Below, piece after piece: positions 327 through 19,257 of a stretch of 19,310 bases of DNA (positions within the stretch are counted from its first letter, which is position 1; every line of letters begins with the position of its first letter). The position numbers and the translations under genes are program-made. This stretch comes from Clostridia bacterium (lineage in GTDB: Bacteria > Bacillota > Clostridia > TANB77 > RGIG9151): positions 1 through 19,310 of the forward strand of contig JAGBIO010000014.1 in NCBI GenBank assembly GCA_017934955.1. The letters run 5' to 3'. Below the pieces are notes generated by a model, which worked only from the letters and a program-made list of their open reading frames with translations, was not told the DNA's origin and searched no databases.

Positions 327-530
327 GTAGGGACACAATTTATTGTGTCCGGGAAAAAGGCAGAAAGGCCGGACACAATGAATTGTGTCCGTACAGTAGG
401 TTGAGAAATATCTACAGAAGAGGCAGAAAGGCCGGACACAATGAATTGTGTCCGTACAGTAGGTTGAGAAATGTCTACAGAAAAGGCAGAAAGACAGGAC
501 ACAATGAATTGTGTCCGTACAGTAGGTTGA
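327..530. repeat. REP-like hairpin cluster: inverted doublet plus a 63-bp-period tandem array (about 2.5 units)
   Basis: GTAG-GGACACAA-TTTA-TTGTGTCC at 327-350. GGACACAA-TGAA-TTGTGTCC-GTAC at 371-394, 434-457 and 497-520, spaced exactly 63 bp apart. The inter-hairpin sequence AGTAGGTTGAGAAAT(A/G)TCTACAGAA(G/A)AGGCAGAAAG is nearly identical between units. Confidence 0.95.
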
Positions 531-551
531 TATACATTTAAGGTACTAAGT

Positions 552-580
552 TTGACTTTGGACAAACCGGTTTTTTTAAT
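552..580 (+). promoter_or_regulatory. Candidate sigma-A promoter upstream of recJ
   Basis: TTGACT (552-557), 17-nt spacer, TTTAAT (575-580), about 40 nt upstream of the recJ start. Confidence 0.35.
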
Positions 581-616
581 TGAAAAACTCAAAAAAAAGT
601 GCTAAGCTGTTAGCGG

Positions 617-2869
617 GTGAAGCAGATGAGGGTAAAAATCAGAAATGCAGGAAAGAGAGTGCCGGATTCTTTGATAAAGGCATGTGGTGGAAATAAAATT
701 TTGGCACAGGTGTTTTTTAATCGTGGAATTCAGTCGGGAGAACGGTTACAGCAGTTTTTAGGATATGAACGGTATCGTCCGTATAATCCTTTGGATTTTC
801 CGGGAATGAAAGAGGCTTGTGACTTAGTAGTAGAGACAATTTCGCGAAAGAAAAAGATAGCGATTTACGGCGATTATGATGCGGATGGAGTGACGGCTAC
901 TTCGGTGCTGGTGAAGGGCTTAAGACATTTTCATGCGGATGTGATTTATCATGTTCCGGATCGTTTTGCGGAAGGTTACGGTATGAATTCGGAAGTGGTA
1001 AGGCAGATGAAGGAGGAAGATGTTTCACTAATCATTACTTGCGACTGTGGTATTTCGAATTTTGAGGAAATAAAAGCAGCGAAAGCGCTGGGGATGAACG
1101 TGATTTTGACAGACCATCATACCATTGGAGAAAGTTTACCGGAGGCGGATTTTATTATTAATCCGAAGTTGCTAAAAGAGGGGCATCCGATTCGCAGTGT
1201 GTCGGGATGTGGTGTTGCGTATCTTTTTATTAAGGCACTTGGTACATTGTTAGGGGACGATATTTCAGAGGAGTTTTTGGATTTAGTGGCTTTATCGATT
1301 ATTTCGGATGTGATTCCGCTCCATGATGAAAGTCGGTATTTGTTTGTGAAGGGTTTTCCGAAGCTAATGAACGGAGAGCGACTTGGGATGAGGGAGTTAC
1401 TTAATAATCTTTCGAGTCCTGTAAAATCAGCGGAGGATATCGGCTTTTATGTGGCACCGCAAATTAATGCGGTTGGACGAATGGATAATGCGAAGATTGC
1501 GGTGGAGTTGTTTTTAACGGAGGATGCGGATGAAGCGAAGGAAATTGCTGAGACAATTCGATGTCTTAATGTAGATCGCAAAAACATACAGGCGGAAATT
1601 TATGAGCAAGCCAAAAGGCAAGTGGAGGAAGAGAAAAAGAATAAAAAAATTCTGATTTTATATGGTGAGAATTGGCATCACGGGATTATTGGGATTGTTG
1701 CAGGTAAGATTTGTGAGGAGTATCATAAGCCGTGTATTGTATTATCCTTAAAAGAGAACGGAGAGGGAATTGTTGGCTCTGCAAGGTCGATTGAAGGCAT
1801 CAATATCTATAACCTTCTTTCGAAATTTCAGAATGATTTAACAAAATTCGGCGGGCATGCGGAGGCGGCAGGACTTTCTTTAGAGAGCGGGATGCTTTCG
1901 AAATTTGTGGAGGATTTAGAACAATATGCGGATGTATATTTTGAACTTGCTTCGGAAGAGGAAGTTGTCGTGGATATGGAATTGAAGTTTTCTGATGTGA
2001 AGGAAGACTTGTTAAAGGCATTGGAAAGCGGAGAACCGTATGGAGCGGAGTTCCCGGGACCTGTGTTTGTGACGCAAAATGCAAGGATTACAGCGGAGAA
2101 AATCAGCGGGTTGCATCATTTTTTGACATTAACGGATGCGGAAGGAAACGAGGTTGGGACAACATTATGGAATTATGGGACGGAGCCGTTATTAAATAAA
2201 TGCTGTACAGTGGTGTATAGTATCTATTTGGATACTTATCGGGATCGAAATGAAATTAAGATAAAGATTTCGGATTTATCTTTTGATCCGGTTGAAATTG
2301 TGCAGAGTAAAGTGGAATGGATTGATCGGAGAAATACTGCGTTGGAGAAGGTTATCGAGGAGTTTCCGAATTATAGAGTGTTTTATGAGGGACCGCAGGT
2401 TAATAAGCCGGAGATGACTACCATTGACAGTCATTATTTTGGGGAGGAACGTGGAATTATTTTGGCTTCATTACCACGGGACACCGAAACTTTGGAAAAA
2501 ATTACATCTCATACAAATTGTGAGAAAATCATTATTAATTATTCCTATTTGCCGAAATATGATTGGAATACTTACCTAAAGACATTTTTGGGTGTTGTGA
2601 AAACGGCAGTAAAGCAAAGTGACGGCAAAATTCCGATTCAAAAGATGGCGGAGATTTTGTTGGTAGATAAGGAATTTGTTTTGTTATGTTTGAAATTGTA
2701 TGAAAAGTATGGATATTTTTCTTATCGAATGGAGGAAAATGTGATATTTTTTGATATAATGGAAAAGGAACCGGTGAAGGATAGCTATTTGGAGGAAATG
2801 GTGGAAAATTATTTGTCGGAAAAGCAAGAGTATGTAAATTTTATGAATACGGTACCGGTGGGTGAATAA
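617..2869 (+). CDS. recJ: Single-stranded-DNA-specific exonuclease RecJ (DHH/DHHA1 family)
   Basis: 750-aa ORF with DHH-family motifs IYGDYDADGVTA, ITCDCG and LTDHH, plus the DHHA1 motif GGHAEAAG. GTG at 617; alternative ATG at 626. Confidence 0.92.
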   Translation: MKQMRVKIRNAGKRVPDSLIKACGGNKILAQVFFNRGIQSGERLQQFLGYERYRPYNPLDFPGMKEACDLVVETISRKKKIAIYGDYDADGVTATSVLVKGLRHFHADVIYHVPDRFAEGYGMNSEVVRQMKEEDVSLIITCDCGISNFEEIKAAKALGMNVILTDHHTIGESLPEADFIINPKLLKEGHPIRSVSGCGVAYLFIKALGTLLGDDISEEFLDLVALSIISDVIPLHDESRYLFVKGFPKLMNGERLGMRELLNNLSSPVKSAEDIGFYVAPQINAVGRMDNAKIAVELFLTEDADEAKEIAETIRCLNVDRKNIQAEIYEQAKRQVEEEKKNKKILILYGENWHHGIIGIVAGKICEEYHKPCIVLSLKENGEGIVGSARSIEGINIYNLLSKFQNDLTKFGGHAEAAGLSLESGMLSKFVEDLEQYADVYFELASEEEVVVDMELKFSDVKEDLLKALESGEPYGAEFPGPVFVTQNARITAEKISGLHHFLTLTDAEGNEVGTTLWNYGTEPLLNKCCTVVYSIYLDTYRDRNEIKIKISDLSFDPVEIVQSKVEWIDRRNTALEKVIEEFPNYRVFYEGPQVNKPEMTTIDSHYFGEERGIILASLPRDTETLEKITSHTNCEKIIINYSYLPKYDWNTYLKTFLGVVKTAVKQSDGKIPIQKMAEILLVDKEFVLLCLKLYEKYGYFSYRMEENVIFFDIMEKEPVKDSYLEEMVENYLSEKQEYVNFMNTVPVGE

Positions 2870-2877
2870 GAAAGGAA

Positions 2878-3990
2878 ATGAGGAAAATGAAAAAAGCGAT
2901 TAGTTTGTTTTTGAGTGTTTTATTAATGTTTAACGTTACGTTTGCGGAGATTTCCGTGATATCGGAAGATGTTTCGGATTTTGATACAGAGAAATTGACG
3001 CTTTATAAAGAGTTGATTCAAGATTTATTCTATAAGGACGTTTCGGATAAAGAATTATACGAAGCGGCTATAAAAGGGATGTTTTCTTCTTTAGATGTAT
3101 ATAGTTCTTATTATAACGAAGAACAGACAGCTTCTTTTGAAGAATCGACTTCCGGTCATTATGTGGGAATCGGAATTAAGTTTGAGGGAAATGCAGAATA
3201 TATGCGTGTTGTGAAGGTGTTTACCGGTACTCCTGCCGATACTGCCGGAATGTTGATTGGAGATTATATTATTGCGGTAAACGGTGAAGAAGTAAAGGGA
3301 ATGTCTACTACAAAGGTTGCGTCTATGATTAAGGGAGAAGAAGGCACAACGGTAAAGTTGACTTTGCTTCGTGAACAGACTTTGTTTACAGTAGAAGTAG
3401 AAAGAAAGCAAATTCAGGCAGAGTCTTGTGAGTTTCAAGTTTTGGAGAAAGATATCGGATACATCAAGATTGAGGAATTTAATGATAGTACATATACTGA
3501 AGTAAGTAAATATGTACAAGCCTTAAAGGCACTTCAGATGGATCAATTGATTTTGGATTTAAGAGATAATCCGGGCGGATATGTATCGCAAGCGGTTGCG
3601 GTGGCAAATCATTTCGTTCCTAAGGGCGTTGTGACGACGTTAAAGTATAAGAATTCGGCGAAGGATAAAGAGTATTCTTCTGTTTTGAAGAAGCCGTATT
3701 TTAAGTTGGTTGTGTTGGTAAATGGAAATTCAGCATCGGCTGCGGAAATTTTGGCGGGTGCGATTAAGGATACAAAGGCAGGAACTTTGATTGGAACCAC
3801 AACATACGGAAAAGGTGTTTTCCAGAACATGTATAACTTAAAGGACGGGGGTTCTATTAAGATTACAACAGGTGTTTACTATACACCGAACGGTACTTGT
3901 ATCGATAAAGTGGGAATTGCGCCAAATATTGAGGTAGTAGAGCCTGAGGCACAGTTACAGCGTGCGATTGAGGAAGTGAAGAAATTGTAG
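2878..3990 (+). CDS. S41-family C-terminal processing peptidase (Ctp/Prc-like) with N-terminal signal/anchor and PDZ domain
   Basis: Hydrophobic N-terminus KKAISLFLSVLLMFNVTFA. PDZ-like segment GIGIKF...GDYIIAVNGEEV. Catalytic-Ser motif NGNSASAAEILAGAIKD and Lys motif TYGKG. Starts 8 nt after the recJ stop, so probably co-transcribed; alternative ATG at 2887. Confidence 0.9.
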   Translation: MRKMKKAISLFLSVLLMFNVTFAEISVISEDVSDFDTEKLTLYKELIQDLFYKDVSDKELYEAAIKGMFSSLDVYSSYYNEEQTASFEESTSGHYVGIGIKFEGNAEYMRVVKVFTGTPADTAGMLIGDYIIAVNGEEVKGMSTTKVASMIKGEEGTTVKLTLLREQTLFTVEVERKQIQAESCEFQVLEKDIGYIKIEEFNDSTYTEVSKYVQALKALQMDQLILDLRDNPGGYVSQAVAVANHFVPKGVVTTLKYKNSAKDKEYSSVLKKPYFKLVVLVNGNSASAAEILAGAIKDTKAGTLIGTTTYGKGVFQNMYNLKDGGSIKITTGVYYTPNGTCIDKVGIAPNIEVVEPEAQLQRAIEEVKKL

Positions 3991-4000
3991 AGAGTGATGA

Positions 4001-4030
4001 AGATGTCCGAAAGGGCATCTTTATTGTTTG
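4001..4030 (+). terminator. Rho-independent terminator after the protease gene
   Basis: Stem AGATGTCC/GGGCATCT (8 bp, one G-U pair), GAAA loop, followed by TTATTGTTT. Confidence 0.6.
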
Positions 4031-4052
4031 GCGTAAACCATAGCGGGACGTC

Positions 4053-4161
4053 GGGGACGCCGTCCCCTACAATGATGGTACAAACGTTGTAGGGACACAA
4101 TTCATTGTGTCCGCGGAATGGGCAGAAGGTAGAATTAGGACACAATAAATTGTGTCCGTAC
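4053..4161. repeat. REP-like truncated copy plus inverted doublet (REPIN-like)
   Basis: GGGGACG-C-CGTCCCC followed by TAC at 4053-4070, a short variant. GTAG-GGACACAA-TTCA-TTGTGTCC at 4089-4112. GGACACAA-TAAA-TTGTGTCC-GTAC at 4138-4161. The 25-nt spacer contains GGCAGAAGG. Confidence 0.93.
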
Positions 4162-4248
4162 AGACCGCATTCTACCAGTATTTTTCGTAAGATACAAGAT
4201 TATAGAATGACCTGAAAGACTTAACGTTGGATAAATTTACTGTTTTGA

Positions 4249-4277
4249 TTGACCTTGGCGAATTTTGGTGATATTAT
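4249..4277 (+). promoter_or_regulatory. Candidate extended -10 sigma-A promoter of serS
   Basis: TTGACC (4249-4254), 17-nt spacer ending in TGa, TATTAT (4272-4277). RBS AGGGGG lies about 8 nt before the ATG at 4310. Confidence 0.55.
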
Positions 4278-4309
4278 GTTGTATATGATTTGGTTTAGGG
4301 GGCGTAGAT

Positions 4310-5587
4310 ATGTTAGATATTAATTTGATTAGAGAAAATCCGGAAAAAGTAAAGGCTGCATTGGCTAAAAAACTTTATGATGTGGATTTTACCGAATTTT
4401 TGGAGAAGGATGCGAAGAGAAAAGAGTTACGATATGAGACGGATACGTTAAAGGCGGAGAGAAACAAGACTTCTGCGTTGGTTCCTCAGATGAAGAAAGA
4501 GGGAAAAGATACGACAGCCGTTATTGAGGAAATGAAGAAATTAGGGGACAAGATTAAAGAAAATGACGAAAAAATCAGTGCACTTGAGGCGGAATTGCAA
4601 TATTTCTTGGATTGCTTGCCGAATATGCCGGCGGAGGATTTACTTCCGGGTGGTAAGGAAAACAATAAAGAGATTGCAATTTGGGGAGAGAAGCCGACTT
4701 TTGATTTTGAACCGAAGAATCATGTGGATATTGCGGAGAATTTAGGAATTATTGATTATAAAAGAGGCGCAAAGTTAGGCGGAAATGGTTTTTGGATTTA
4801 TCGTCATGATGGTGCGAAGTTGGAATGGGCTTTAATTAATTATTTCATTGAGACGCATTTGGCAGACGGCTATGAATTTTTGTTATTGCCACATTTATTA
4901 ACAAGAAAATGCGGTTACGGTGCGGGTCAATTCCCGAAATTTGCGGAAGATGTTTATCATTTGGATAATACGAGCGAAAACAGTACGCATTTCCTTTTAC
5001 CGACAGCGGAAACAGCGCTTGTGAATATGCACGCGGATGAGATTTTGGAGGAAGATGAACTTCCGTTTAAGTATGCGGGATATACTCCTTGCTACAGAAA
5101 AGAGGCAGGAAGCTATCGTGCGGAAGAAAGAGGTATGATTCGCGGACATCAGTTTAACAAGGTGGAAATGGTTCAATATACGACTCCGGAAAATTCTCCG
5201 GCTGCGTTTGAAGAGTTATTAAATAAAGCAGCAAAATTGGTGCAAGGTTTGGGACTTCATTACAGAATTTCGAAATTGGCTGCGGCAGATTGCAGTCATG
5301 CGATGGCGAGAACGTGTGATATCGAGGTTTGGATTCCGAGCATGAATGATTATAAGGAAGTAAGCTCGGTTTCGAATGCGTTTGACTATCAGGCGAGAAG
5401 AAATAATACAAGATACAGAAATAAGGCAACCGGAAAGTTAGAGTATGTTCATACTTTAAATGGTTCGGGATTGGCTACCAGCAGAGTTCTTCCGGCGATT
5501 ATGGAACAGTATCAGCAGGCGGACGGAAGTGTTGTTGTTCCGGAAGTTTTGAGAAAATGGGTTGGAAAAGATGTTATTACAAAGTAG
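4310..5587 (+). CDS. serS: Serine--tRNA ligase
   Basis: 425-aa ORF with the typical SerRS N-terminal coiled-coil arm (MLDINLIRENPEKVKAAL...) and a class II core (FKYAGYTPCYRKEAGS, GHQFNKVEM, LNGSGLATSR). Confidence 0.96.
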   Translation: MLDINLIRENPEKVKAALAKKLYDVDFTEFLEKDAKRKELRYETDTLKAERNKTSALVPQMKKEGKDTTAVIEEMKKLGDKIKENDEKISALEAELQYFLDCLPNMPAEDLLPGGKENNKEIAIWGEKPTFDFEPKNHVDIAENLGIIDYKRGAKLGGNGFWIYRHDGAKLEWALINYFIETHLADGYEFLLLPHLLTRKCGYGAGQFPKFAEDVYHLDNTSENSTHFLLPTAETALVNMHADEILEEDELPFKYAGYTPCYRKEAGSYRAEERGMIRGHQFNKVEMVQYTTPENSPAAFEELLNKAAKLVQGLGLHYRISKLAAADCSHAMARTCDIEVWIPSMNDYKEVSSVSNAFDYQARRNNTRYRNKATGKLEYVHTLNGSGLATSRVLPAIMEQYQQADGSVVVPEVLRKWVGKDVITK

Positions 5588-5604
5588 AGGCAGAGATATG
5601 GAAT

Positions 5605-5781
5605 GGACAGCATGAATGCTGTCCGTACAGAAGGATTGAGGAAGAAATAGCGTGTGGACAGCATAAATGCTGTTCGTACAGAAGGGTTGAGGAAAAAATA
5701 GCGTGTGGACAGCATAAATGCTGTCCGTACAGAAGGATTGAGGAAGAAATAGCGTGTGGACAGCATGAATGCTGTCCGTAC
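5605..5781. repeat. Tandem array of four REP-like hairpins, 51-bp period
   Basis: GGACAGCA-T(G/A)AA-TGCTGTCC-GTAC at 5605-5628, 5656-5679 (one C>T giving a G-T pair), 5707-5730 and 5758-5781. Spacers AGAAGG(A/G)TTGAGGAA(G/A)AAATAGCGTGT are nearly identical. The array fills the whole serS-argS gap. Confidence 0.96.
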
Positions 5782-5801
5782 GTGGTTTTAGGAGGTTTTT
5801 G

Positions 5802-7562
5802 ATGAAAACGATTATTGCATATTTGAGCGAAATATTTGAAAAAGCGTTTGTGGCTTGCGGGTATGAGAAGGAGTACGGAAAAGTGACGGTTTCCAATCGT
5901 CCGGATTTGTGTCAATTTCAGTGTAACGGAGCGATGGCAGGGGCGAAGAGGTATAAGAAGAGTCCTTTGCAAATTGCGCAGGAAGTTGTGGAACATGTGG
6001 ATAAGGCTCCTTTTGAAAAAGTGGAAGTGGTGGCGCCGGGATTCATTAATTTGGTTTTGAAAGATGAAGAAATTTTAAAGGCGGCTGTTGCGATTCATGA
6101 AGATAAGGATTTTGGTTTGAATAAGGTTTCGGATGAGACGGTTGTGGTGGATTATGGTGGACCGAATATTGCGAAGCCGCTTCATGTAGGTCATTTGCGT
6201 TCGGCAATTATCGGGGAATCAGTGAAACGATTGGCGAAAGTGTTGGGTTATCGTGCGATTGGAGACGTGCATCTTGGTGACTGGGGTTTACAGATGGGCT
6301 TGATTATTACGGAATTTGCGGAGCAGAATCCGGAGAGCAAGTACTTGGATGATCGTTATGATGGTGAATATGAGCCACTTGCGATTTCGATGGATGATTT
6401 GAATGAAATTTATCCGAGGGCCAGCAAGAGAAGTAAAGTGGATGAAGAGTACATGGCGAGAGCGCAGCAAGCGACATTTGACTTACAGCATGGCAGACGT
6501 GGTTATATGGCACTTTGGAGAGAAATTGTTCGGATCTCGGTGGCGGATTTGAAGGCAAATTATGAGAAGTTGAATGTTTCTTTTGAGTATTGGTACGGGG
6601 AAAGTGACAGTGAGAAATATATTCCGGATATGATTGCGGAATTTATTGAAAAAGGGTATGCATATGAGAGTGAAGGCGCGCTGGTAGTAGATGTGGCGAA
6701 GCCGGAGGATAAGGCGCCAATGCCGCCGGTTTTGGTGCGGAAGAGTAACGGATCGCAGATTTACGCAACGACGGATTTGGCGACGATTAAGCAGAGAATG
6801 CAGGATTTTCATCCTTCTATGATTTTGTATTTTGTGGATAACAGACAGGGATTACATTTTGAGCAAGTCTTCCGTTGTGCGAGAAAAACGGGCTTGGTTT
6901 CGGAGGATGTGGTTTTGGAATTTGACGGATTCGGTACCATGAACGGAAAGGATGGAAAGCCGTATAAGACCAGAGATGGCGGAGTTATGAAGTTACGTGA
7001 TTTGATTGATAACGTATGTGCGGCAGCTTTGGAGAAGATGGAAGAGGCGAAAACGGGATTAGAGTTGTCGGAAGAAGAGAAGAAGGAGACAGCGTTAAAG
7101 GTTGGTATTTCTGCGCTCAAGTTTGGTGATTTAATCAATTACAGAGCGAAGGATTATATTTTTGACTTGGATAAATTTATGTCTTTTGAGGGGAAAACCG
7201 GACCTTATATGTTATATACGATTGTGCGGTTGAATTCAATTTTGACGAAGGCGAAGGAGAAAGGTTTTGAGATTGGTACGCTTGGACTTCCGAAGACGGA
7301 CGTGGAACGTGAGGTTCTGCTGAAGACGATTTTAATGAATGAAGTATTTTGGCAAGCGTTTTCGGATAGAGCGCCGAGTGGTATTTGCGAGAATGCTTAT
7401 CAGATTGCGTCTTTGGCGAATCGGTTTTATTATGAGAATAAGATTTTGTCGGAAGAAAATGAGGAACGCAGAGGGGAATTGTTGGCGTTCTGCGAGTATG
7501 TGTTGCGAATTTTGAAGTTACATATGGAGATTTTGGCGATTGATGTGCCGGAACGTATGTAA
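5802..7562 (+). CDS. argS: Arginine--tRNA ligase
   Basis: ORF-track frame 5769..7562. ATG 5802 (MKTIIAYLSE...) is preferred because AGGAGG sits at 5790-5795 and the 5769 start lies inside the last repeat. Class I HIGH motif in PNIAKPLHVGHLRSAIIGE. Confidence 0.94.
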   Translation: MKTIIAYLSEIFEKAFVACGYEKEYGKVTVSNRPDLCQFQCNGAMAGAKRYKKSPLQIAQEVVEHVDKAPFEKVEVVAPGFINLVLKDEEILKAAVAIHEDKDFGLNKVSDETVVVDYGGPNIAKPLHVGHLRSAIIGESVKRLAKVLGYRAIGDVHLGDWGLQMGLIITEFAEQNPESKYLDDRYDGEYEPLAISMDDLNEIYPRASKRSKVDEEYMARAQQATFDLQHGRRGYMALWREIVRISVADLKANYEKLNVSFEYWYGESDSEKYIPDMIAEFIEKGYAYESEGALVVDVAKPEDKAPMPPVLVRKSNGSQIYATTDLATIKQRMQDFHPSMILYFVDNRQGLHFEQVFRCARKTGLVSEDVVLEFDGFGTMNGKDGKPYKTRDGGVMKLRDLIDNVCAAALEKMEEAKTGLELSEEEKKETALKVGISALKFGDLINYRAKDYIFDLDKFMSFEGKTGPYMLYTIVRLNSILTKAKEKGFEIGTLGLPKTDVEREVLLKTILMNEVFWQAFSDRAPSGICENAYQIASLANRFYYENKILSEENEERRGELLAFCEYVLRILKLHMEILAIDVPERM

Positions 7563-7567
7563 AAGCA

Positions 7568-7618: not shown

Positions 7619-7624
7619 ATACTA

Positions 7625-7870: not shown

Positions 7871-7883
7871 GTTGGAATCCTCC

Positions 7884-8145: not shown

Positions 8146-8169
8146 GGCCACAATAAATTGTGTCCGTAC
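8146..8169. repeat. Solo REP-like hairpin, slightly degenerate
   Basis: GGCCACAA-TAAA-TTGTGTCC-GTAC, with one stem mismatch (A>C). Confidence 0.85.
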
Positions 8170-9320: not shown

Positions 9321-10160
9321 ATGCAAAATCTGTATTGGTTGATAGAGAACATTTTTCCGTTTGAGTGGACAAGATATGATTTTATGAAGAATGCTTTTCT
9401 TGCGACGCTTTTGATTGGGATATTGTTTGGTTTTTTGGGAAGTATGGTTGTGAATCAGAAAATGGCATTTTTTTCTGAGGCATTGGGTCATTCGGCTTTG
9501 ACGGGAATCGGAATCGGGGCGGTGCTTGGCGTTAGTAATTCGCTTGTTTCGATGATTCTTTTTGCGATTTTTATGTCGTTAGCGATTTGGTTTGTGGAGA
9601 AGAAAAATACGATGTCTACCGATACCATCATCGGGACGATTTCTTCGATTGCGATTGCGTTGGGATTGGTTTTGATGTCGCAGGGTGGAAATTTTAATAA
9701 ATATTCTTCGTATCTAATCGGGGATGTGTTGAGTATTACGACAAATGAGATTGTGATGCTGTTTGTGACTTTGATTGCTACGATTGCCTTCTGGAGCATA
9801 TTATTTAATAAATTGGTTTTGGCAGGCGTGAATAGTGCGATTGCCAATAGCCGAAAGATAAAGTCGGATTGGATTAATTTGATTTTTATCGTTTTGGTGG
9901 CTGTGGTCGTGATGATTTCAATTAAATGGGTAGGAATTTTAATTATTAATTCTTTATTGATTTTACCGGCGGCTACCGCAAGGAATGTTGCGAGAAATAT
10001 GAAACAATATACTTTACTTTCTGTTATTTTCTCGGTGGTTTCGTGTTTGCTTGGATTGGTGCTGTCGTATTACATAGATGCTGCGGCGGGAGCGACGATT
10101 GTACTTGTTTCGTCGGTATTTTTTGTGATTAGCTTATTTGGGCTTAGGTGGAATCAGTAG
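9321..10160 (+). CDS. Metal (Zn/Mn/Fe-type) ABC transporter permease, ABC-3 family (ZnuB/MntB/TroC-like)
   Basis: Polytopic membrane protein (AFLATLLIGILFGFLGSMVVNQKMAFFSEALGHSALTGIGIG...). ATG 9321 is preferred over 9282 because the predicted promoter -10 overlaps 9282 and a GGGGAAGGGA RBS precedes 9321. Confidence 0.82.
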   Translation: MQNLYWLIENIFPFEWTRYDFMKNAFLATLLIGILFGFLGSMVVNQKMAFFSEALGHSALTGIGIGAVLGVSNSLVSMILFAIFMSLAIWFVEKKNTMSTDTIIGTISSIAIALGLVLMSQGGNFNKYSSYLIGDVLSITTNEIVMLFVTLIATIAFWSILFNKLVLAGVNSAIANSRKIKSDWINLIFIVLVAVVVMISIKWVGILIINSLLILPAATARNVARNMKQYTLLSVIFSVVSCLLGLVLSYYIDAAAGATIVLVSSVFFVISLFGLRWNQ

Positions 10161-10163
10161 AGT

Positions 10164-10324
10164 GGACAGCATGAATGCTGTCCGTACGGATGCTTTGATG
10201 GAATGGGTAAAATGGACAGCATGAATGCTGTCCGTACAGTAGGGAAGAATGGGGTAGGGACAGCATTTATGCTGTCCGCTAAATAGGCAGATATGTAAAC
10301 GGACACAATAAATTGGGTTCGTAC
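10164..10324. repeat. REP-like cluster: two tandem copies (50-bp period) plus an inverted doublet mixing both stem variants
   Basis: GGACAGCA-TGAA-TGCTGTCC-GTAC at 10164-10187 and 10214-10237. GTAG-GGACAGCA-TTTA-TGCTGTCC at 10254-10277. Degenerate GGACACAA-TAAA-TTGGGTTC-GTAC at 10301-10324. Confidence 0.93.
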
Positions 10325-10350
10325 AGCTAGTTTTGAAAGGGGAGAGATAG

Positions 10351-11708: not shown

Positions 11709-11738
11709 CCCGTGAACCTTGTTGTTTCACAATAAAAT

Positions 11739-11864
11739 GGACAGCATGAATGCTGTCCGTACAGAAGGATTGAGGAAGAAGTAACATGTGGACAGCATGA
11801 ATGCTGTCCGTACAGAAGGATTGAGGAAGAAGCAACATGTGGACAGCATGAATGCTGTCCGTAC
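11739..11864. repeat. Tandem array of three REP-like hairpins, 51-bp period
   Basis: GGACAGCA-TGAA-TGCTGTCC-GTAC at 11739-11762, 11790-11813 and 11841-11864. Spacers AGAAGGATTGAGGAAGAAG(T/C)AACATGT are nearly the same unit as the 5605-5781 array. Confidence 0.96.
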
Positions 11865-11883
11865 AGAAATATTGTGATATTTA

Positions 11884-13372: not shown

Positions 13373-13554
13373 GGACACAATGAATTGTGTCCGTACAAAT
13401 ACTTTTCTACCGACATTGTAGGGACAGCATTTATGCTGTCCACAGAAAAGGGAGAAATAGGACAGCATGAATGCTGTCCGTACAAATGAAATTCTGCCTA
13501 TAACACTATATAAGGGGACAAGGGACGAGTGGACACAATGAATTGTGTCCCTAC
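13373..13554. repeat. BIME-like cluster of four REP-like hairpins in alternating orientation
   Basis: GGACACAA-TGAA-TTGTGTCC-GTAC at 13373-13396. GTAG-GGACAGCA-TTTA-TGCTGTCC at 13418-13441. GGACAGCA-TGAA-TGCTGTCC-GTAC at 13460-13483. GGACACAA-TGAA-TTGTGTCC-CTAC at 13531-13554, which is a GTAG-type copy on the - strand. Confidence 0.94.
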
Positions 13555-13650
13555 AAACTGCTTTCTGCCGATTTTTTCGAATTTTAAATAAAATCTGAAT
13601 AAAGAATGGGAAAGATGTATAATATTTAAAAGGTTTTCAAGGGTAAAATG

Positions 13651-13679
13651 TTGAATATATAAAATGCTTGGTATATAAT
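13651..13679 (+). promoter_or_regulatory. Candidate sigma-A promoter of mreB/mbl
   Basis: TTGAAT (13651-13656), 17-nt spacer, consensus TATAAT (13674-13679). AGGAGG RBS at 13705-13710. Confidence 0.6.
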
Positions 13680-13718
13680 CAAAATACACAAGGCATGAGG
13701 GAATAGGAGGAAGGTATT

Positions 13719-14741
13719 TTGTTGGGTTTTGGACAAGATATAGGAATTGATTTGGGAACAGCGACTGTATTAATTTATGTAAAAGGCAAAGGAATTGTAT
13801 TAAGAGAACCTTCTGTTGTGGCAATTGATAAGAATACAAATGCCGTTATGGCGGTTGGGGAAGAGGCAAGATTGATGCTTGGCAGAACCCCGGGAAATAT
13901 TGTTGCGATTCGTCCTCTTCGAGATGGCGTTATTTCGGATTATCAAGTAACGGAAAGAATGTTGCGTTATTTTATTAATAAGGTTTGCGGAAGTCGTATT
14001 TTCCGTCCGCGCTTAGTCATTTGCGTACCTTCTGAGGTGACGGAGGTAGAGAAAAAGGCAGTTATTGATGCAGCGATGCAGGCGGGAGCAAGAAAGGTGC
14101 AGTTGGTGGAAGAGCCGATTGCGGCTGCGATTGGTGCGGGTATTGATATCGCGAAGGCTTACGGTACGATGGTGGTAGATATCGGTGGTGGTACAACGGA
14201 TATTGCGGTTATTGCACTTGGCGGAAATGTGCTGAGTACGTCAATTAAAGTGGCGGGAGATAAATTTGATGAGGCGATTATTCGTTTTATGCGAAAAAAA
14301 TATAATGTGATGATTGGGGAAAGAACGGCGGAAGAGATGAAGATTAAAATCGGTTGTGTTTTCCCGAAGGTACAGGATAATTCTATGGAAGTGCGTGGAC
14401 GAAATTTGCTTTCCGGATTGCCGATTACGGTGGAAGTGAATTCTTCTGAAATGTTGGAGGCTTTAGAAGAGCCGGCGACGATGATTGTAGAGTCGGTGCA
14501 TAGTGTTTTGGAGAATACTCCTCCGGAGTTATCGGCGGATATCAGCGATAAGGGAATTTTGATGACCGGTGGAGGTGCGATGCTGGATGGGTTGGATAAA
14601 TTAATTTCCAGTAAAACCGGAATTAATGTTTATTTGGCGGAAGATGCGGTTTCCTGCGTGGCATACGGAACCGGTAAGATTTTGGATAATTTGGATGTTT
14701 TGTCAAAAATTGCTCCTCCGGAGAGAAAATTGGAACTATAA
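13719..14741 (+). CDS. mreB: Rod shape-determining actin homologue MreB/Mbl
   Basis: 340 aa. Motifs DIGIDLGTATVLIYVKG, VVDIGGGTTDIAVI and GILMTGGGA. TTG start 8 nt after AGGAGG. Synteny with the following rod genes mirrors B. subtilis mbl-flhO-flhP. Confidence 0.92.
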   Translation: MLGFGQDIGIDLGTATVLIYVKGKGIVLREPSVVAIDKNTNAVMAVGEEARLMLGRTPGNIVAIRPLRDGVISDYQVTERMLRYFINKVCGSRIFRPRLVICVPSEVTEVEKKAVIDAAMQAGARKVQLVEEPIAAAIGAGIDIAKAYGTMVVDIGGGTTDIAVIALGGNVLSTSIKVAGDKFDEAIIRFMRKKYNVMIGERTAEEMKIKIGCVFPKVQDNSMEVRGRNLLSGLPITVEVNSSEMLEALEEPATMIVESVHSVLENTPPELSADISDKGILMTGGGAMLDGLDKLISSKTGINVYLAEDAVSCVAYGTGKILDNLDVLSKIAPPERKLEL

Positions 14742-14796
14742 AGTTTTGATGCTGTTTTGACGATATCTGTACAGAGGAAAAATAGGAGGTACACTT

Positions 14797-15546
14797 ATGA
14801 TAAGAGGAATCTATACTTCCGGATTGGGAATGATAAAGGAAACAAAGCGTTTAGACGTAATTTCAAACAATTTGGCGAATGCGAGTACTAATGCGTTTAA
14901 GTCTTCCGGCGTGACATCGGGAAATTTTGCGAAGGCCTTAAGTGATGTCAGAGTGGGAAGGAGTAAAATCGATATAGAAAATTACACACCGGATGCGGTG
15001 AATACATATACCAATTATACACAGGGAAGTTTGAAAAATACAGCTAATAAAACGGATTTGGCGATTACCGGAGATAATCATGCTTTTTTTGAAGTAGAGA
15101 ATGATGAGGGCGAAAAATTATATACGCGAGATGGTTCTTTTTCTGTGAATAAAGACGGTTATTTGGTAACGGATGAAGGTTATAAAGTTTTGGGAGAAAA
15201 AGGATATATCAATTTAAACAATAACGAAATTGGAATTTCGGCAGCAGGACAGATTACCGCATTAAAGGATAATTCCGTAATCGATACTTTATCGATTAAA
15301 TCGTTTGAGAATCCCGAAACTTTGTCAAAATTGGGAGATAATTTTGTGAAGCCGGGGGAAGAGTCGATTATGACTAAGTTTACCGGAGAAGTTCAGCAGG
15401 GATATTTGGAGATGTCGAATGTGAATACGGTAAACGAAATGGTGAATATGATTTCGGTAACGAGAGCGTATGAAGCGAATCAAAAGGTGCTTCAGGCACA
15501 GGATGAGATGTTGGGAAAAGCAGTAAGTGATGTTGGAAAAGTATAG
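14797..15546 (+). CDS. flgF: Flagellar basal-body rod protein (FlgF-like; FlhO in B. subtilis nomenclature)
   Basis: 249 aa. N-terminal rod/hook signature GLGMIKETKRLDVISNNLANASTNAFK and C-terminal YLEMSNVNTVNEMVNMISVTRAYEANQKV. AGGAGG RBS. Confidence 0.82.
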   Translation: MIRGIYTSGLGMIKETKRLDVISNNLANASTNAFKSSGVTSGNFAKALSDVRVGRSKIDIENYTPDAVNTYTNYTQGSLKNTANKTDLAITGDNHAFFEVENDEGEKLYTRDGSFSVNKDGYLVTDEGYKVLGEKGYINLNNNEIGISAAGQITALKDNSVIDTLSIKSFENPETLSKLGDNFVKPGEESIMTKFTGEVQQGYLEMSNVNTVNEMVNMISVTRAYEANQKVLQAQDEMLGKAVSDVGKV

Positions 15547-15574
15547 TCGTAAAAGGTAAAGGGAGGTAATACAT

Positions 15575-16390
15575 ATGATGAGAGCTTTGTGGACGGCAGC
15601 GACCGGAATGACAGGGCAGCAGACGAATGTCGATGTGATTGCGAATAATTTGTCGAATGTGAATACGACAGCTTATAAAAAATCGAGAGTGGAGTTTAAG
15701 GATTTAGTATATGAAGAGAGAAATCGTGCTTATAACTTAAAGCGTGATGATGCTCCTGCGAATCTGCAAATCGGTCTTGGTGCAAGACCTTCTGCGACGT
15801 TAAAAGATTTTTCCGACGGTACTTATACGATGACGGAAAATCGTACGGATTTAGCAATTAGCGGACCCGGATTTTTCACGTTGAGAGATACGGAAGGAAA
15901 TACGATTTATACCAGAGACGGAAGTTTTAAGTTTTCTGCGGAAGAAGATGGCGGACAGATGTTGGTGAATTCGCAGGGTTATCCGGTATTGGATGCAGAG
16001 GGAAATGAAATTAAAATAAATATCAATAATTTGGAAGAGTTTGCGGTAGACATAGATGGTTCGATTTATGTTATGGGAGAAGATGGTTTGCCGGTTGATA
16101 CCGGAATTGAAATCGGATTGGTAAAATTCCAAAATCCGGCGGGTCTTTTGAGTATTGGCTCGAATAATTATCAGGTGACGGCGAATTCCGGACAGCCGGT
16201 GTGGGAAAACGCATTAGATGACGGAGAGGAAAGAAGTACAATTATGCAGAATTATTTAGAAGGGTCTAATGTGGAATTGGTTGAGGAAATGGTAAATTTG
16301 ATTGTGGCACAGCGGGCTTATGAGATTAATTCCAAAACAGTACAAGCGGCTGATGATATGTTACAACAGGCAAATAACCTAAAAAGATAG
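15575..16390 (+). CDS. flgG: Flagellar basal-body rod protein FlgG (FlhP-like)
   Basis: 271 aa. MRALWTAATGMTGQQTNVDVIANNLSNVNTTAYKK and C-terminal YLEGSNVELVEEMVNLIVAQRAYEINSK. GGGAGG RBS. Confidence 0.88.
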   Translation: MMRALWTAATGMTGQQTNVDVIANNLSNVNTTAYKKSRVEFKDLVYEERNRAYNLKRDDAPANLQIGLGARPSATLKDFSDGTYTMTENRTDLAISGPGFFTLRDTEGNTIYTRDGSFKFSAEEDGGQMLVNSQGYPVLDAEGNEIKININNLEEFAVDIDGSIYVMGEDGLPVDTGIEIGLVKFQNPAGLLSIGSNNYQVTANSGQPVWENALDDGEERSTIMQNYLEGSNVELVEEMVNLIVAQRAYEINSKTVQAADDMLQQANNLKR

Positions 16391-16398
16391 GGGGATAA

Positions 16399-16743
16399 AT
16401 GATGGAAATAGGTTCTAATCTTCCTTATATTCCAAATCAAGATCAGACAACAAATTTGGTTGGAAAATTAAAAAGTGCCTATACAGAGGCTGACGATAAA
16501 CAGCTAAAAGAGGCATGCCAAGGGTTTGAAGCTATCTTTGTTAATATGATGTTATCGGAAATGCGGAAAACAGTGCCGGAAAGCGGATTAATGGAGTCTT
16601 CTTTTGCAAATGATACTTTTACGCAGATGTTGGATGAAGAGATTGCAGAGTCGGTATCGAAAGGAAAAGGCATTGGAATCGCGGATATGATGTATAAACA
16701 AATATCGGAAAAATTGAAGAATACCTATAAAGTAGAAGAGTAA
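16399..16743 (+). CDS. Flagellar rod-binding protein (FlgJ N-terminal domain only, no muramidase domain)
   Basis: 114 aa. ACQGFEAIFVNMMLSEMRKT ... FTQMLDEEIAESVSKGKGIGIADMMYKQ matches the Rod_binding domain pattern. Confidence 0.8.
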   Translation: MMEIGSNLPYIPNQDQTTNLVGKLKSAYTEADDKQLKEACQGFEAIFVNMMLSEMRKTVPESGLMESSFANDTFTQMLDEEIAESVSKGKGIGIADMMYKQISEKLKNTYKVEE

Positions 16744-16756
16744 AGGAGCGATTTTT

Positions 16757-17122
16757 ATGGATAACAGTTATAAGGAAAATAAAAGCAGGCGTGCCTTCGG
16801 GCGTACCGATAAAGCAGTTTGTAAATTATATGTATCGAAAGGTGCAGAAAAATGGACGGAGGTTTATGCCGTTAATATTTCTGCCGGCGGAACGAAGTTT
16901 ATTTCGAGATTGGTACAGTTAGAAGAGGGAGACGAAATTTTCGTAAGAATTGATTTGCTAAGCGGTTTCTCGGAATTTGTATTTAAGACACGTGCGAAAA
17001 TCAGCAGAAAAGAGAATGCAGAAACTTATGCCGTGCAGTTTTTGGATATGAGTAAGGCGAATCAAGTAATGTTAGATGAAATCGTGCATGCGAATAATCG
17101 GAAGTTTTCAAAAATTGATTAA
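16757..17122 (+). CDS. Single-domain PilZ (c-di-GMP-binding) protein
   Basis: 121 aa. Canonical PilZ motifs RRAFGR (RxxxR) and NISAGG (D/NxSxxG). Starts 13 nt after the FlgJ-like gene, with a GGAG RBS. Confidence 0.8.
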   Translation: MDNSYKENKSRRAFGRTDKAVCKLYVSKGAEKWTEVYAVNISAGGTKFISRLVQLEEGDEIFVRIDLLSGFSEFVFKTRAKISRKENAETYAVQFLDMSKANQVMLDEIVHANNRKFSKID

Positions 17123-17158
17123 AAGAAAAGGACAGCGTTTATGCTGTCCTTTTCTTTT
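17121..17158. terminator. Bidirectional intrinsic terminator shared by the PilZ gene (+) and tRNA-Gly (-)
   Basis: Perfect 16-bp stem AAAAGAAAAGGACAGC/GCTGTCCTTTTCTTTT with loop GTTTAT. The A-tract and T-tract arms give a U-run on both strands. The core GGACAGC..GCTGTCC is the REP stem. Confidence 0.78.
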
Positions 17159-17162
17159 GATC

Positions 17163-17236
<74 letters not shown>

Positions 17237-17309
17237 ATGATTGTATTGTATCACAAGTTTTTGAAAAAATCTATAGAATAAGAAAAAATCCGGCTTATTT
17301 GATGTTACA

Positions 17310-17391
17310 GGTCAGACACAAATTTATATAGAAGGCACAAACCCAGTAGGGACACAATTCGTGGACGTAACGCCATGAACAAAGTGAATGG
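17310..17391 (+). repeat. Left copy of an 82-bp direct repeat bracketing the ATPase gene
   Basis: GGTCAGACACAAATTTATATAGAAGGCACAAACCCAGTAGGGACACAATTCGTGGACGTAACGCCATGAACAAAGTGAATGG. It matches 19038-19119 at 75 of 82 positions, and all 7 differences are transitions. Confidence 0.93.
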
Positions 17392-17459
17392 CTTGTACGT
17401 CCTGTGCAAAGAAACTCTAAGGACGAAGTGATTGGGAAGTTTCTATTGCTATTGTGTCC
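17346..17459 (+). repeat. GTAG-type REP hairpin split by a 90-bp insert in its loop
   Basis: GTAG-GGACACAA-TTC (17346-17360), then a 90-nt insert (17361-17450), then A-TTGTGTCC-GCG (17451-17462). The intact equivalent is 4089-4115, GTAGGGACACAATTCATTGTGTCCGCG. The insert carries its own hairpin: GGACGTA/TACGTCC plus GCCAT/ATGGC (17363-17402). Confidence 0.85.
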
Positions 17460-17663
17460 GCGAAACAAGCTGTCTAAAATTAGGACACATTCTGACGATA
17501 TTTTTTGAAAGATACAAGATTATTGTCTGAATTGTAACCCAAACGCTGAATGATTTTAGCCGAAAAATGAAGCAGAAAAAGTAATAAGCTATTTCAAAAT
17601 CCGTACACACGCTCCGAATCACAAAGTTCGTTGTAAAAAGTGTGATAATTCTACGAATATTCG

Positions 17664-17692
17664 TTGTAATTTTTGCTTTGTTGTGGTATACT
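17664..17692 (+). promoter_or_regulatory. Candidate extended -10 promoter of the ATPase gene
   Basis: TTGTAA (17664-17669), 17-nt spacer ending in TGg, TATACT (17687-17692). GGAGGT RBS at 17712-17717. Confidence 0.45.
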
Positions 17693-17722
17693 ATATCCGT
17701 AATATGATATGGAGGTGCGTGT

Positions 17723-19021
17723 ATGTACCGAATTGCTATTGAGAAATTATTAAAATGGAAAGAAAGCAAACGCCGTAAGCCGTTAATTATTGAGGGAGCA
17801 CGACAGGTCGGCAAAACTTGGCTGATGAAAGAGTTCGGAAAGCTATACTATGCCGATACCGTGTATATCAACTTCGATTCTAATTCAAGAATGGCGGAGC
17901 TTTTCGCTTCCGATCTGGATACCAACCGTTTGATTATGGGCTTGGAGTTATATACTGGTCGAAAAATTGATCCTGATAATACGCTTTTAATTTTTGACGA
18001 GGTGCAGGAAGTTCCGAGAGCGCTCAGTTCTCTAAAATACTTTTATGAAAACTCACCCGAGTATCACATTGTATGTGCAGGCTCTATGCTCGGCATAGCT
18101 TTACACCAAGGCACATCTTTTCCGGTAGGAAAGGTTGATTTCTTAAAGCTCTATCCGCTCTCTTTCAGGGAGTTTTTAATGGCAACCGACAAGGAACGCT
18201 TTGCAGATTTGCTCGATAAACAAGACTACCAAATGATAACCAGCTTTAAGCAAACATATATTGACGCCCTCAAGCATTATTATTTTGTTGGCGGTATGCC
18301 TGAAGCGGTACAAAGTTTTGCGGAAAACAAGGATTTCAATGAGGTTCGTGATATACAAAAGAGAATACTTGCTGCTTATGAGCAGGATTTTTCAAAACAT
18401 GCACCAAACGAAATTGTTCCGAAAATTCGTATGCTGTGGAACAGCATCCCCTCTCAGCTTGCAAAAGAAAACAAGAAGTTTGTTTACGGTCTTGTCAAGG
18501 AAGGTGCACGTGCAAAGGATTATGAAACCGCCATTATGTGGCTTTCCGATTGCGGACTTGTTCATAAGATCAGCCGTGTAAATGCTGCCGGCATACCCTT
18601 AAAAGCATATGAAGATTTGAAAGCCTTTAAGCTATTTGTTGTTGATGTGGGAGTGCTTGGTTGTATGGCAGGACTCCGCCAGCGCACCTTGCTTGATGGG
18701 AACGACCTTTTTGTTGAGTTCAAGGGTGCTCTTACAGAACAGTATGTATGCCAGCAACTTAAAACCGTCGAAGATTTAGGCGTTTACTATTACACCAACG
18801 ACAGAGGTTCTTGTGAGATTGACTTTATTGTTGATACCGGCGAACAAATCATTCCCGTAGAAGTTAAGGCAGAAGTAAACCTCCGAGCGAAAAGTCTTAA
18901 AACCTATCAGGAAAAATTCACACCGAAGGTATCTGTTCGCACTTCGATGGCAGATTTCAAAAAAGAAGAACGGCTTGTTAATTTGCCACTATATGCGATA
19001 GAGCAGATTGCCGATTTATAA
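17723..19021 (+). CDS. AAA-family ATPase with C-terminal DUF4143 (PD-(D/E)xK-like) domain (AAA_14/DUF4143, COG1373 type)
   Basis: 432 aa. Walker A GARQVGKT and Walker B LLIFDEVQ. The C-terminal CEIDFIVDTGEQIIPVEVKA is typical of the restriction-endonuclease-like fold in this family. Confidence 0.88.
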   Translation: MYRIAIEKLLKWKESKRRKPLIIEGARQVGKTWLMKEFGKLYYADTVYINFDSNSRMAELFASDLDTNRLIMGLELYTGRKIDPDNTLLIFDEVQEVPRALSSLKYFYENSPEYHIVCAGSMLGIALHQGTSFPVGKVDFLKLYPLSFREFLMATDKERFADLLDKQDYQMITSFKQTYIDALKHYYFVGGMPEAVQSFAENKDFNEVRDIQKRILAAYEQDFSKHAPNEIVPKIRMLWNSIPSQLAKENKKFVYGLVKEGARAKDYETAIMWLSDCGLVHKISRVNAAGIPLKAYEDLKAFKLFVVDVGVLGCMAGLRQRTLLDGNDLFVEFKGALTEQYVCQQLKTVEDLGVYYYTNDRGSCEIDFIVDTGEQIIPVEVKAEVNLRAKSLKTYQEKFTPKVSVRTSMADFKKEERLVNLPLYAIEQIADL

Positions 19022-19037
19022 CTCATAATTACAATTA

Positions 19038-19119
19038 GGTCAGATACAAATTTATATAGAAGGCACAAACCCGGTAGGGACACGATTCGCGGACGTAACA
19101 CCGTGAACGAAGTGAATGG
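19038..19119 (+). repeat. Right copy of the 82-bp direct repeat bracketing the ATPase gene
   Basis: GGTCAGATACAAATTTATATAGAAGGCACAAACCCGGTAGGGACACGATTCGCGGACGTAACACCGTGAACGAAGTGAATGG. It matches 17310-17391 at 75 of 82 positions. Confidence 0.93.
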
Positions 19120-19143
19120 AAAGTTTTGCCTGCTATGGTGTTC
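19074..19143 (+). repeat. Second split GTAG-type REP with a shorter version of the same insert
   Basis: GTAG-GGACAC (19074-19083), then an insert starting (G)ATTCGCGGACGTAAC..., then a degenerate 3' arm GTGTTC (19138-19143) followed by ACAGAAAAG as in intact copies. Relative to the left copy, about 43 nt between the direct repeats AAGTGAATGG and AAGTGATTGG are missing. Confidence 0.7.
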
Positions 19144-19170
19144 ACAGAAAAGACAGACAATATAGAAATA

Positions 19171-19257
19171 GGACAGCATAAATGCTGTCCGTACAAATTA
19201 GATTACATCTTTCTACAAATATGTACAAACACTGTAGGGACAGCATTCATGCTGTCC
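19171..19257. repeat. REP-like pair in divergent arrangement at the window edge
   Basis: GGACAGCA-TAAA-TGCTGTCC-GTAC at 19171-19194. GTAG-GGACAGCA-TTCA-TGCTGTCC at 19234-19257, preceded by GTACAAACACT. Confidence 0.93.

Follow-up and report, generated by a model that had tools for sequence, protein, structure and literature searches.

A family of 24-nt hairpin repeats was analyzed in a 19,310-nt stretch of DNA (hereafter the window; contig JAGBIO010000014.1, assembly GCA_017934955.1) from Clostridia bacterium, an uncultured gut member of the Clostridia. The repeats are probably repetitive extragenic palindromic (REP)-type elements, organised like bacterial interspersed mosaic elements (BIMEs) or REP doublets forming hairpins (REPINs) and moved by a REP-associated tyrosine transposase (RAYT) encoded elsewhere in the genome. 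An earlier note on this DNA had called them REP/BIME/REPIN-like, and that reading was upheld by 24 hairpins against 0 by chance, by doublets and arrays, and by a RAYT link in other genomes. The family belongs to a known kind because same-foot hairpins flank RAYT genes in those genomes; it is best placed among the GTAG REPs of TnpAREP subclass 2.4, being a real and unusually dense family found in Clostridia.

The window was searched with the pattern GTA[GC]GGACA[GC][AC]A-N4-T[GT][GC]TGTCC, with up to 2 mismatches allowed and 200 dinucleotide-preserving shuffles as control. Thirty matches were obtained, against 0.00 expected. Removal of palindrome double counts left 24 distinct canonical copies (21 perfect) of the 24-nt unit GTA(G/C)-GGACA(GC/CA)A-TTYA-T(GC/TG)TGTCC. 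The dense family described earlier (about 26 copies) was recovered, with two split copies and one tagless, terminator-like copy besides the 24 canonical ones. Canonical copies begin at the following positions (strand after the position):

Left third: 327+, 371-, 434-, 497-, 4089+, 4138-, 5605-, 5656-, 5707-, 5758-
Middle: 8146-, 10164-, 10214-, 10254+, 10301-, 11739-, 11790-, 11841-
Right: 13373-, 13418+, 13460-, 13531-, 19171-, 19234+

Each copy folds into an 8-bp stem with a 4-nt loop (-7.0 to -8.4 kcal/mol as DNA, with z scores of roughly -4 to -5). When the tag is placed 5', all 24 copies have a TTCA or TTTA loop. The orientation of every copy is therefore unambiguous, and the element is strand-specific rather than a symmetric duplex site. 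Two stem variants occur in the window, GGACAGCA/TGCTGTCC and GGACACAA/TTGTGTCC (GC/GC and CA/TG), and they differ by a double compensatory change.

ENA metagenome contigs ERZ28018929 k141_181248 and ERZ28655052 scaffold_699 (69.5 kb; BioSample SAMN15830104, run SRR12529200) are identical to the window, and the organism has no isolate genome. None of the 24 canonical copies overlapped a credible gene called on these public contigs, in agreement with the earlier statement that no copy lies inside a coding sequence. A 42-aa open reading frame (ORF) call over 19234-19257 was taken as spurious, and the overlap of one array with the argS ORF was only apparent (called argS start 5802, behind AGGAGG). 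Copy density in the window was ~1.2 per kb. The contig was extended 9.7 kb rightward (L108), so that ~29 kb of the organism was examined in total, with 28 copies over 11 intergenic regions. One region that had been listed among those occupied, 17237-17722, proved to hold zero canonical copies, with one split copy (17346-17459) and one truncated copy in their place. An Rfam search of the window at E up to 1 returned only tRNA-Gly and chance-level matches and no family for the hairpins. The window-type hairpin was not found in viral contigs.

Two hairpin types, doublets and arrays

Types were defined by aligning every copy with its flanks. Type 1 carries a GTAG tag and the 5' flank (G/T)CACAAAC-N3, and lies on the + strand in 5/6 window copies. 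Type 2 carries a GTAC tag and lies on the - strand in 18/18 copies from 10 independent loci; CT stands directly 5' of the tag in 12 of these 18. The GTAG tag was counted on 6 window copies and on 4 in the contig extension, and the GTAC tag on 18 window copies. That GTAG and GTAC mark two types with differing flanks and strict strand bias had been overlooked in the earlier note. GC skew is positive along the whole window (+0.05 to +0.42) and the + strand holds most genes, which makes it in all likelihood the leading one.

Doublets share one layout at four to five loci, a type-1 copy (+) followed by a ~20-25-nt linker with GGCAGAA and a type-2 copy (-). All four convergent doublets named earlier (327/371, 4089/4138, 10254/10301 and 13418/13460) were present, and as single-stranded DNA the doublets fold at -21 to -27 kcal/mol. 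Doublets take up no more than about 6-8 of the ~28 copies counted over 29 kb. Arrays repeat the type-2 hairpin and linker only, in a single direction throughout. The tandem arrays noted earlier were located by Tandem Repeats Finder at four sites: 355-530 (period 63), 5604-5781 (51), 10142-10237 (50) and 11738-11868 (51). The 51-nt unit of the serS-argS array recurs 3' of hisS (91% identity over 133 nt), which indicates that hairpin plus linker, or a multi-unit block, was copied between the two loci. Individual elements were as follows:

327-350 (+): type-1 REP, left half of a doublet with 371-394; GTAG-GGACACAA-TTTA-TTGTGTCC, 5' flank GCACAAACATC
355-530 (-): array of 2.8 units of 63 nt; type-2 REPs at 371-394, 434-457 and 497-520, linker containing AGGCAGAAAGGCC
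4089-4161 (+): doublet between ctp and serS; type 1 at 4089-4112 (+), 25-nt GGCAGAA linker, type 2 at 4138-4161 (-); as single-stranded DNA it can form one long hairpin (-21 kcal/mol)
5604-5781 (-): array of 3.5 units of 51 nt, from the serS stop to the argS ribosome-binding site; four type-2 copies at 5605, 5656, 5707 and 5758
8146-8169 (-): solo type-2 GTAC copy with 1 mismatch, between - strand asd and a 61-aa ORF
10142-10324 (no strand assigned): mosaic between znuB and hisS; tandem type-2 copies 10164- and 10214- (period 50), then a doublet of 10254+ (type 1) and 10301- (degenerate type 2)
11738-11868 (-): array with 2.6 repeats of a 51-nt unit; type-2 copies at 11739, 11790 and 11841, between the terminator-like hairpins of convergent hisS and a NAGPA-domain gene
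13373-13554 (no strand assigned): cluster of alternating copies, upstream of mreB in a divergent region; type 2 at 13373-, type 1 at 13418+, type 2 at 13460-, GTAG copy at 13531-; the 13418/13460 pair can fold as a long REPIN-like hairpin (-25 kcal/mol, z = -9.4)

RAYT genes and hairpins in other genomes

Species-representative genomes were scanned with the degenerate pattern, which yielded at least 105 stretches from many phyla, those other than the phylum of the window predominating. Among the matches listed were Chloroflexota, Bacteroidota, Rhodothermales, Ignavibacteria, Nostoc and several metagenome-assembled genomes (MAGs) of Oscillospiraceae and other Clostridia. The tag was GTAG in 131 of the 136 matches listed, though the pattern permitted G or C. 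The two variable stem positions were complementary in 134 of these 136, in four pair combinations (25% expected by chance), and the matches listed are therefore real hairpins rather than chance matches. 'Double-foot' GTAG...CTAC forms made up 22 of the 136 matches listed, in other genomes.

Unbiased clustering of all ORFs in the at least 105 stretches singled out one small protein family, with an HUH motif (MPNH[ILF]H) and a tyrosine motif (RYHDH[VI]I). It matched NCBIfam NF047646, 'REP-associated tyrosine transposase' (E = 1e-12 to 1e-19). Two members were read in their surroundings. In L065 (Clostridia MAG CGS6M2-bin21), three GTAGGGACACCATATATGGTGTCC copies (GTAGGGACACC...), at 6283+, 6389- and 7094-, bracket the RAYT gene (6416-6970), and one of them abuts its 3' end. 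In L094 (Bacteroidota MAG274), two upstream and four downstream tandem units run in one direction around the RAYT gene with a period of 47. These units are G(T/C)AC-GGACACAATGC(T/C)TTGTGTCC hairpins, with tag, 8-bp stem and array style as in the window; a GTAC-tagged one-directional architecture is accordingly found beside this RAYT as well. The predicted link to a Y1/HUH transposase holds for same-foot hairpins in these other genomes.

A RAYT profile was built from 38 relatives of the L065 and L094 proteins (alignment A1). Its E-value was 8e-12 against TnpAREP of E. coli (4ER8), far better than the 0.0096 against TnpA, the transposase of ISDra2. Four relatives of the L065 RAYT (P0002, P0004, P0005 and P0006; 46-54% identity) were looked up, and GTAGGGAC[AG]C hairpins lay beside or inside the gene in 4/4; the hairpin foot therefore tracks this RAYT subclade. 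All four come from other organisms, and their hairpins are of other subtypes than those of the window. Motifs of the RAYTs next to same-foot hairpins include NH[IFV]H (MPNHLH, MPNHFH), WQ and a YIxNNP-like motif (YIDSNP). By these motifs, the RAYTs fit TnpAREP subclass 2.4 (Bertels Group 4).

Eighty further RAYT loci (L110-L189) were read in metagenomes and stem from gut, rumen and termite Clostridia assemblies. Most carry in-frame GTAG hairpins inside the RAYT gene, usually as a convergent pair ~165 bp apart with the HUH motif between them. Translated examples of the insertions are VGATIGRP ... GRPMVAPT and VGTRYIVS ... RTPCMASLQ. Hairpins inside RAYT genes were also found at L053 3195-3223, L192 6256-6325 and L194 4380-4434. 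In-frame REP insertions in the RAYT gene are a hallmark of subclass 2.4 (Quentin et al. 2018, PMC6006769), and such insertions are already published and not new here. The window-type hairpin was absent from the 80 metagenome RAYT loci scanned, and peptides from an in-frame window-type hairpin were absent from the 240 matches listed in searches seeded with the L065 and L094 RAYTs.

Two loci showed further features. At L192 6001-6534, RAYT P0004 lies between uvrB and uvrA on a 38% GC Clostridia contig and has two internal GGACAC hairpins; no other GGACAC copies were present in 12.5 kb of L192. At L094 1050-1190, in-frame 15-nt tandem repeats (GAAGCCGGAC[TA]C, EAGL/EAGH) stand between the HUH and tyrosine motifs of the RAYT, at the position where other family members carry REP insertions.

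The exact 20-nt window hairpin, GGACACAATT(T/C)ATTGTGTCC, was found in three other MAGs:

L016 3541-3604: doublet, goat-rumen Muribaculaceae MAG
L019 3276-3912: one-directional arrays, rumen Prevotella MAG
L009 3141-3199: divergent GTAG/GTAC pair between ftsW and murG, 71% GC Rubricoccaceae MAG

Such hairpin identity across phyla fits either a tight constraint imposed by the enzyme or horizontal transfer of the system.

Related species were chosen through SerS identity: 88% (L198-L202), 86% (L206), 84% (L195/L196, GCA_017450465.1, and L203) and 77% (L205). The recJ-ctp-serS-argS or serS-argS synteny is retained in these relatives. In all of them except L203, argS comes next after serS, only 12-54 nt away; in the window the two genes are 214 nt apart, and the gap is filled by the four-unit array. 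No GGACA hairpin was present at the same intergenic sites in any relative examined (L195, L196, L198-L203, L205 and L206), and the GGACA family therefore expanded in the lineage of the window. Presence/absence differences among related genomes had been put forward earlier as a check: absence at the same sites was borne out between species, in a comparison at 77-88% SerS identity only. A few doublets of other GTAG families (GGGGCGGGG, GGGGCGACC and GGGAACGG) were found in the relatives, so that GTAG REPs are general in this Clostridia group. In one relative, an unrelated GC hairpin occupies the same place in the serS-argS spacer. Hairpin arrays of 170 nt have been inserted between housekeeping genes that are nearly contiguous in relatives.

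Known REP systems and competing explanations

GTAG repeats have been described in Proteobacteria, Cyanobacteria, Chloroflexi and the Planctomycetes-Verrucomicrobia-Chlamydiae (PVC) group, with no Firmicutes among them (Di Nocera et al. 2013, PMC3733652), and for Clostridia Bertels et al. 2017 (PMC5581495) name only Group 1 RAYTs. Literature searches on REP/RAYT with Firmicutes or Clostridia returned no papers on GTAG REP families in Clostridia. The earlier remark that such systems are little documented in Firmicutes was therefore correct for the literature; it did not hold for the genomes, since assemblies of Clostridia from gut, rumen and termites commonly contain RAYT genes with GTAG hairpins. 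In Gemmiger, Oscillospiraceae and Geosporobacter, such genes already bear the public labels 'transposase' or 'RayT'. Nearly all work on REP/RAYT systems has dealt with Proteobacteria; here, several GTAG hairpin families are present in uncultured Clostridia of gut and rumen, these bacteria commonly have subclass 2.4 RAYT genes, and a single lineage can hold one hairpin family at about one copy per kb.

With a genome of ~4.6 Mb, E. coli K-12 has about one REP per 8 kb, against ~1.2 copies per kb in the window. Its REPs number 584 (PMC3333891). E. coli REPs and BIMEs (PMC3333891, PMC8266576) resemble the window family in having two types head to head over conserved linkers, tandem amplification, CT beside many copies and a strictly intergenic location. 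They differ in that E. coli REPs are 30-40-nt imperfect, bulged palindromes, whereas the window stems are perfect and 8 bp long; arrays of E. coli BIMEs alternate in orientation and those of the window are one-directional. REPINs of Pseudomonas fluorescens (Bertels and Rainey 2011, PMC3116915) share inverted doublets, conserved flanks, folding into a long hairpin and family-specific expansion in one lineage. In the window, by contrast, the doublet halves are non-equivalent (GTAG vs GTAC, with differing flanks) and most copies lie outside doublets. REPs of Stenotrophomonas maltophilia (Group 3 / subclass 2.5, PMC8266576) are likewise 23-nt units with GTAG, an 8-bp perfect stem and a short strand-specific loop, but differ in sequence, RAYT subclass and phylum.

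Subclass 2.4 has many members in Cyanobacteria and Bacteroidetes and is scattered among other phyla (PMC6006769). Its REPs (PMC6006769, PMC5581495) share with the window family a perfect stem-loop, GTAG at the foot and a G-C rich stem base. The window family departs from them in its foot (GGAC vs three G-C pairs), in its tags (three quarters of the copies GTAC vs GT[AG]G) and in its host (Clostridia vs mainly Cyanobacteria and Bacteroidetes). The window family is unusual in its GTAC-tagged partner type, in arrays that run in one direction and in sharing identical hairpins with rumen Bacteroidota.

For RAYT-moved REPs, the following course may be proposed. A RAYT/TnpAREP of subclass 2.4, encoded elsewhere in the genome, would bind tag and hairpin on single-stranded DNA and cut at a nearby dinucleotide. 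Strand transfer or rolling-circle-like copying, as in the E. coli BIME model (PMC3333891), would then spread units to new intergenic sites and multiply them in place, and action on the lagging-strand template would produce the uniform orientation. According to Corneloup et al. 2021 (PMC8266576), where cleavage takes place is guided by the GTAG tag, and a change of the tag to GTAC shifts cleavage to GA/GT; GTAG and GTAC ends could therefore be cut at different sites. Effects on the host, e.g., on mRNA 3' ends between the co-transcribed serS and argS, would be secondary.

Several points weigh against this reading. As the earlier note had said of the window, no RAYT-like gene was found there, nor was the organism's own RAYT found in the 9.7-kb extension. 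Matches of the clustered proteins to NF047646 scored 45-69 bits, under the curated cut-off of 80. The GTAC tag of 18/24 copies falls outside the canonical GT[AG]G, and the one-directional arrays are unlike the alternating REP/inverted REP (iREP) pattern of E. coli BIMEs. The orientation bias is inseparable from the direction of transcription because most neighbouring genes are on the + strand; the only locus between - strand genes is 8146. Finally, the presence/absence difference is between species (77-88% SerS identity), not strains.

A narrower version treats the family as a directional REP system, in which GTAG and GTAC are non-equivalent left and right ends on one strand, each guides its own cleavage dinucleotide, orientation is locked to replication, and the GTAC end is rolling-circle-copied into arrays. 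We regard this version as unlikely. Were it true, the identical 20-nt hairpins in the Prevotella and Muribaculaceae MAGs (L019 and L016) would point to transfer between phyla in the gut. The GTAG/GTAC pairing is in any case a natural test of the published tetranucleotide-guided choice of cleavage site.

Asymmetric ends are also what miniature IS200/IS605-type elements, a kind of palindrome-associated transposable element, would have, with the GTAG hairpin as left end, a hairpin plus GTAC as right end, and a classical IS200-type TnpA, in place of a domesticated RAYT, as the moving enzyme. Such elements would account for doublets whose ends differ in tag and flank, for the uniform orientation with both ends on the G-rich strand (the expected lagging-strand template), for a geometry matching IS608 and ISDra2 (PMC3333891, PMC6006769) and for cargo of 90-170 nt in some copies. 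They are nevertheless very improbable here. The tetranucleotide abuts the hairpin foot as in REPs, same-foot hairpins in L065 and L094 flank genes of RAYT type rather than IS200 type, and the profile favours 4ER8 over ISDra2 TnpA; tnpA and tnpB were not found in the 29 kb, and most copies are solo or in one-directional arrays rather than in left/right pairs. Fragments of a conventional MITE (miniature inverted-repeat transposable element), with terminal inverted repeats, a DDE transposase and a hairpin that is merely internal, are scarcely credible. Four elements (17304-17538, 19037 onward, L108 19040-19336 and L108 20818-21010) do have ~45-nt inverted flanks, GTTACAGGTCAGAC / GTCTGAATTGTAAC, as a MITE would, but long inverted flanks also define REPINs, the outer motif occurs in only 2/9 intergenic regions of the window, at chance-level frequency, and target-site duplications were not visible at the four ends read. 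The majority of copies consist of a bare hairpin or of 50-63-nt tandem units, and the GTAG tag, the strand-specific loop and the RAYT link in other genomes are not features of MITEs.

Hairpins kept by the host without a transposase, as mRNA 3'-end protection, attenuators, terminators or sites for nucleoid proteins or gyrase, would explain why all copies are intergenic and many closely follow a stop codon (serS, znuB). At 17121-17158 the tagless copy looks like a textbook bidirectional terminator, the serS-argS spacer of one relative has its own unrelated GC hairpin, and secondary roles of this kind are known for E. coli REPs (PMC8266576). We consider immobility distinctly improbable all the same. 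Read in the direction of the neighbouring genes, the tagged copies have no T run after them, bar 13373-13396 in a divergent promoter region, and the array at 11738-11868, between the terminator-like hairpins of convergent genes, would lie outside both transcripts. Near-identical 51-nt units at unrelated loci, together with absence in relatives, indicate copying, and a function would not rule out a RAYT-driven origin.

Three other candidates were tried and rejected. For a CRISPR array, the spacers have the same sequence within and between arrays, and cas genes were not found. Intrinsic terminators were set aside for the tagged copies, which have no T run on the + strand, bar 13373-13396; only the tagless 17121-17158 qualifies. 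T-box leaders upstream of the tRNA-ligase genes serS, argS and hisS (3991-4309, 5588-5801 and 10161-10350) were not detected by Rfam, even at E up to 1. Repeats take up most of these leader regions.

Long forms, further GTAG families and the host contig

Longer elements with ~45-nt inverted flanks had been overlooked in the earlier note, as had a second GTAG hairpin family at 4044-4070. These and the remaining features of the window were as follows:

123-258 (+): 136-nt repeat with degenerate flanking hairpins, 93% identical to L108 19125-19260
4044-4070 (-): second GTAG hairpin family (GTAGGGGACG..., GTAGGGGACGGCGTCCCCGACGTCCCG), also at L108 20948-20975
17121-17158 (no strand assigned): tagless copy GGACAGCGTTTATGCTGTCC at 17130-17149 with A and T runs on either side, between a PilZ gene and tRNA-Gly
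17304-17538 (+): long-form element with inverted ends GTTACAGGTCAGAC ... GTCTGAATTGTAAC, split type-1 copy 17346-17459 and a truncated right copy at ~17483
19037-19257 (+): second long-form left end with split type-1 copy 19074-19143, then 19171- (type 2) and 19234+ (type 1)

The split copy at 17346-17459 has ~90 nt inserted in the loop of a type-1 hairpin. The left ends 19037-19119 and 17309-17391 are 92% identical. In the extension, the inverted outer flanks of ~45 nt (GTTACAGGTCAGAC ... GTCTGAATTGTAAC) were found on two doublets (L108 19040-19336 and 20818-21010). One of these holds 170 nt of cargo, whose core, at L108 19125-19260 and enclosed by GTAG hairpins in inverted orientation, shares 93% identity with window 123-258. 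The 136-nt repeat has an internal hairpin, GTTGTATAGG...CCTATACAAC, at both places and returned no Rfam match. No target-site duplication was visible at the four long-form ends read in the window and L108, as expected for HUH enzymes. These long forms are similar to REPINs, or to derivatives of REPINs that carry cargo. The tagless hairpin at 17130-17149 may be a co-opted copy, the element at 17121-17158 having the look of a bidirectional intrinsic terminator.

Two further GTAG families were present in the organism, GTAGGGGACGGCGTCC... and a GTAGGGGCGATTATTAATCG... doublet (window 4044-4070 (-); L108 20733-20795 and 20948-20975). This suggests that the genome has more than one REP/RAYT system.

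Genes in the window are recJ, a CtpB-like protease gene, serS, argS, a Coat_F protein gene, asd, znuB, hisS, mreB, flagellar rod genes and tRNA-Gly. The closest named SerS proteins are from 'Clostridia bacterium' MAGs (84% identity), followed by Thermoclostridium and Saccharofermentanales (~66%). The earlier description of a sporulating, flagellated low-GC Gram-positive host agrees with the Coat_F, flagellar rod and mreB genes and with these nearest SerS proteins. All contigs of the organism were 100% identical across their overlap and all stop close to the window's left edge. Repeats of this kind disrupt assembly from short reads, and each contig of the organism ends at or near a repeat. The window has ~40% GC vs 30-34% in L195-L206, i.e., 6-10 points above its closest SerS relatives (77-88% identity). 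The ORF at 17723-19021, which encodes a 432-aa AAA_14/DUF4143 ATPase, is bracketed by two direct long-form copies (17304-17538 and 19037-19257), and the ATPase gene with its flanking long-form elements may be a composite insertion.

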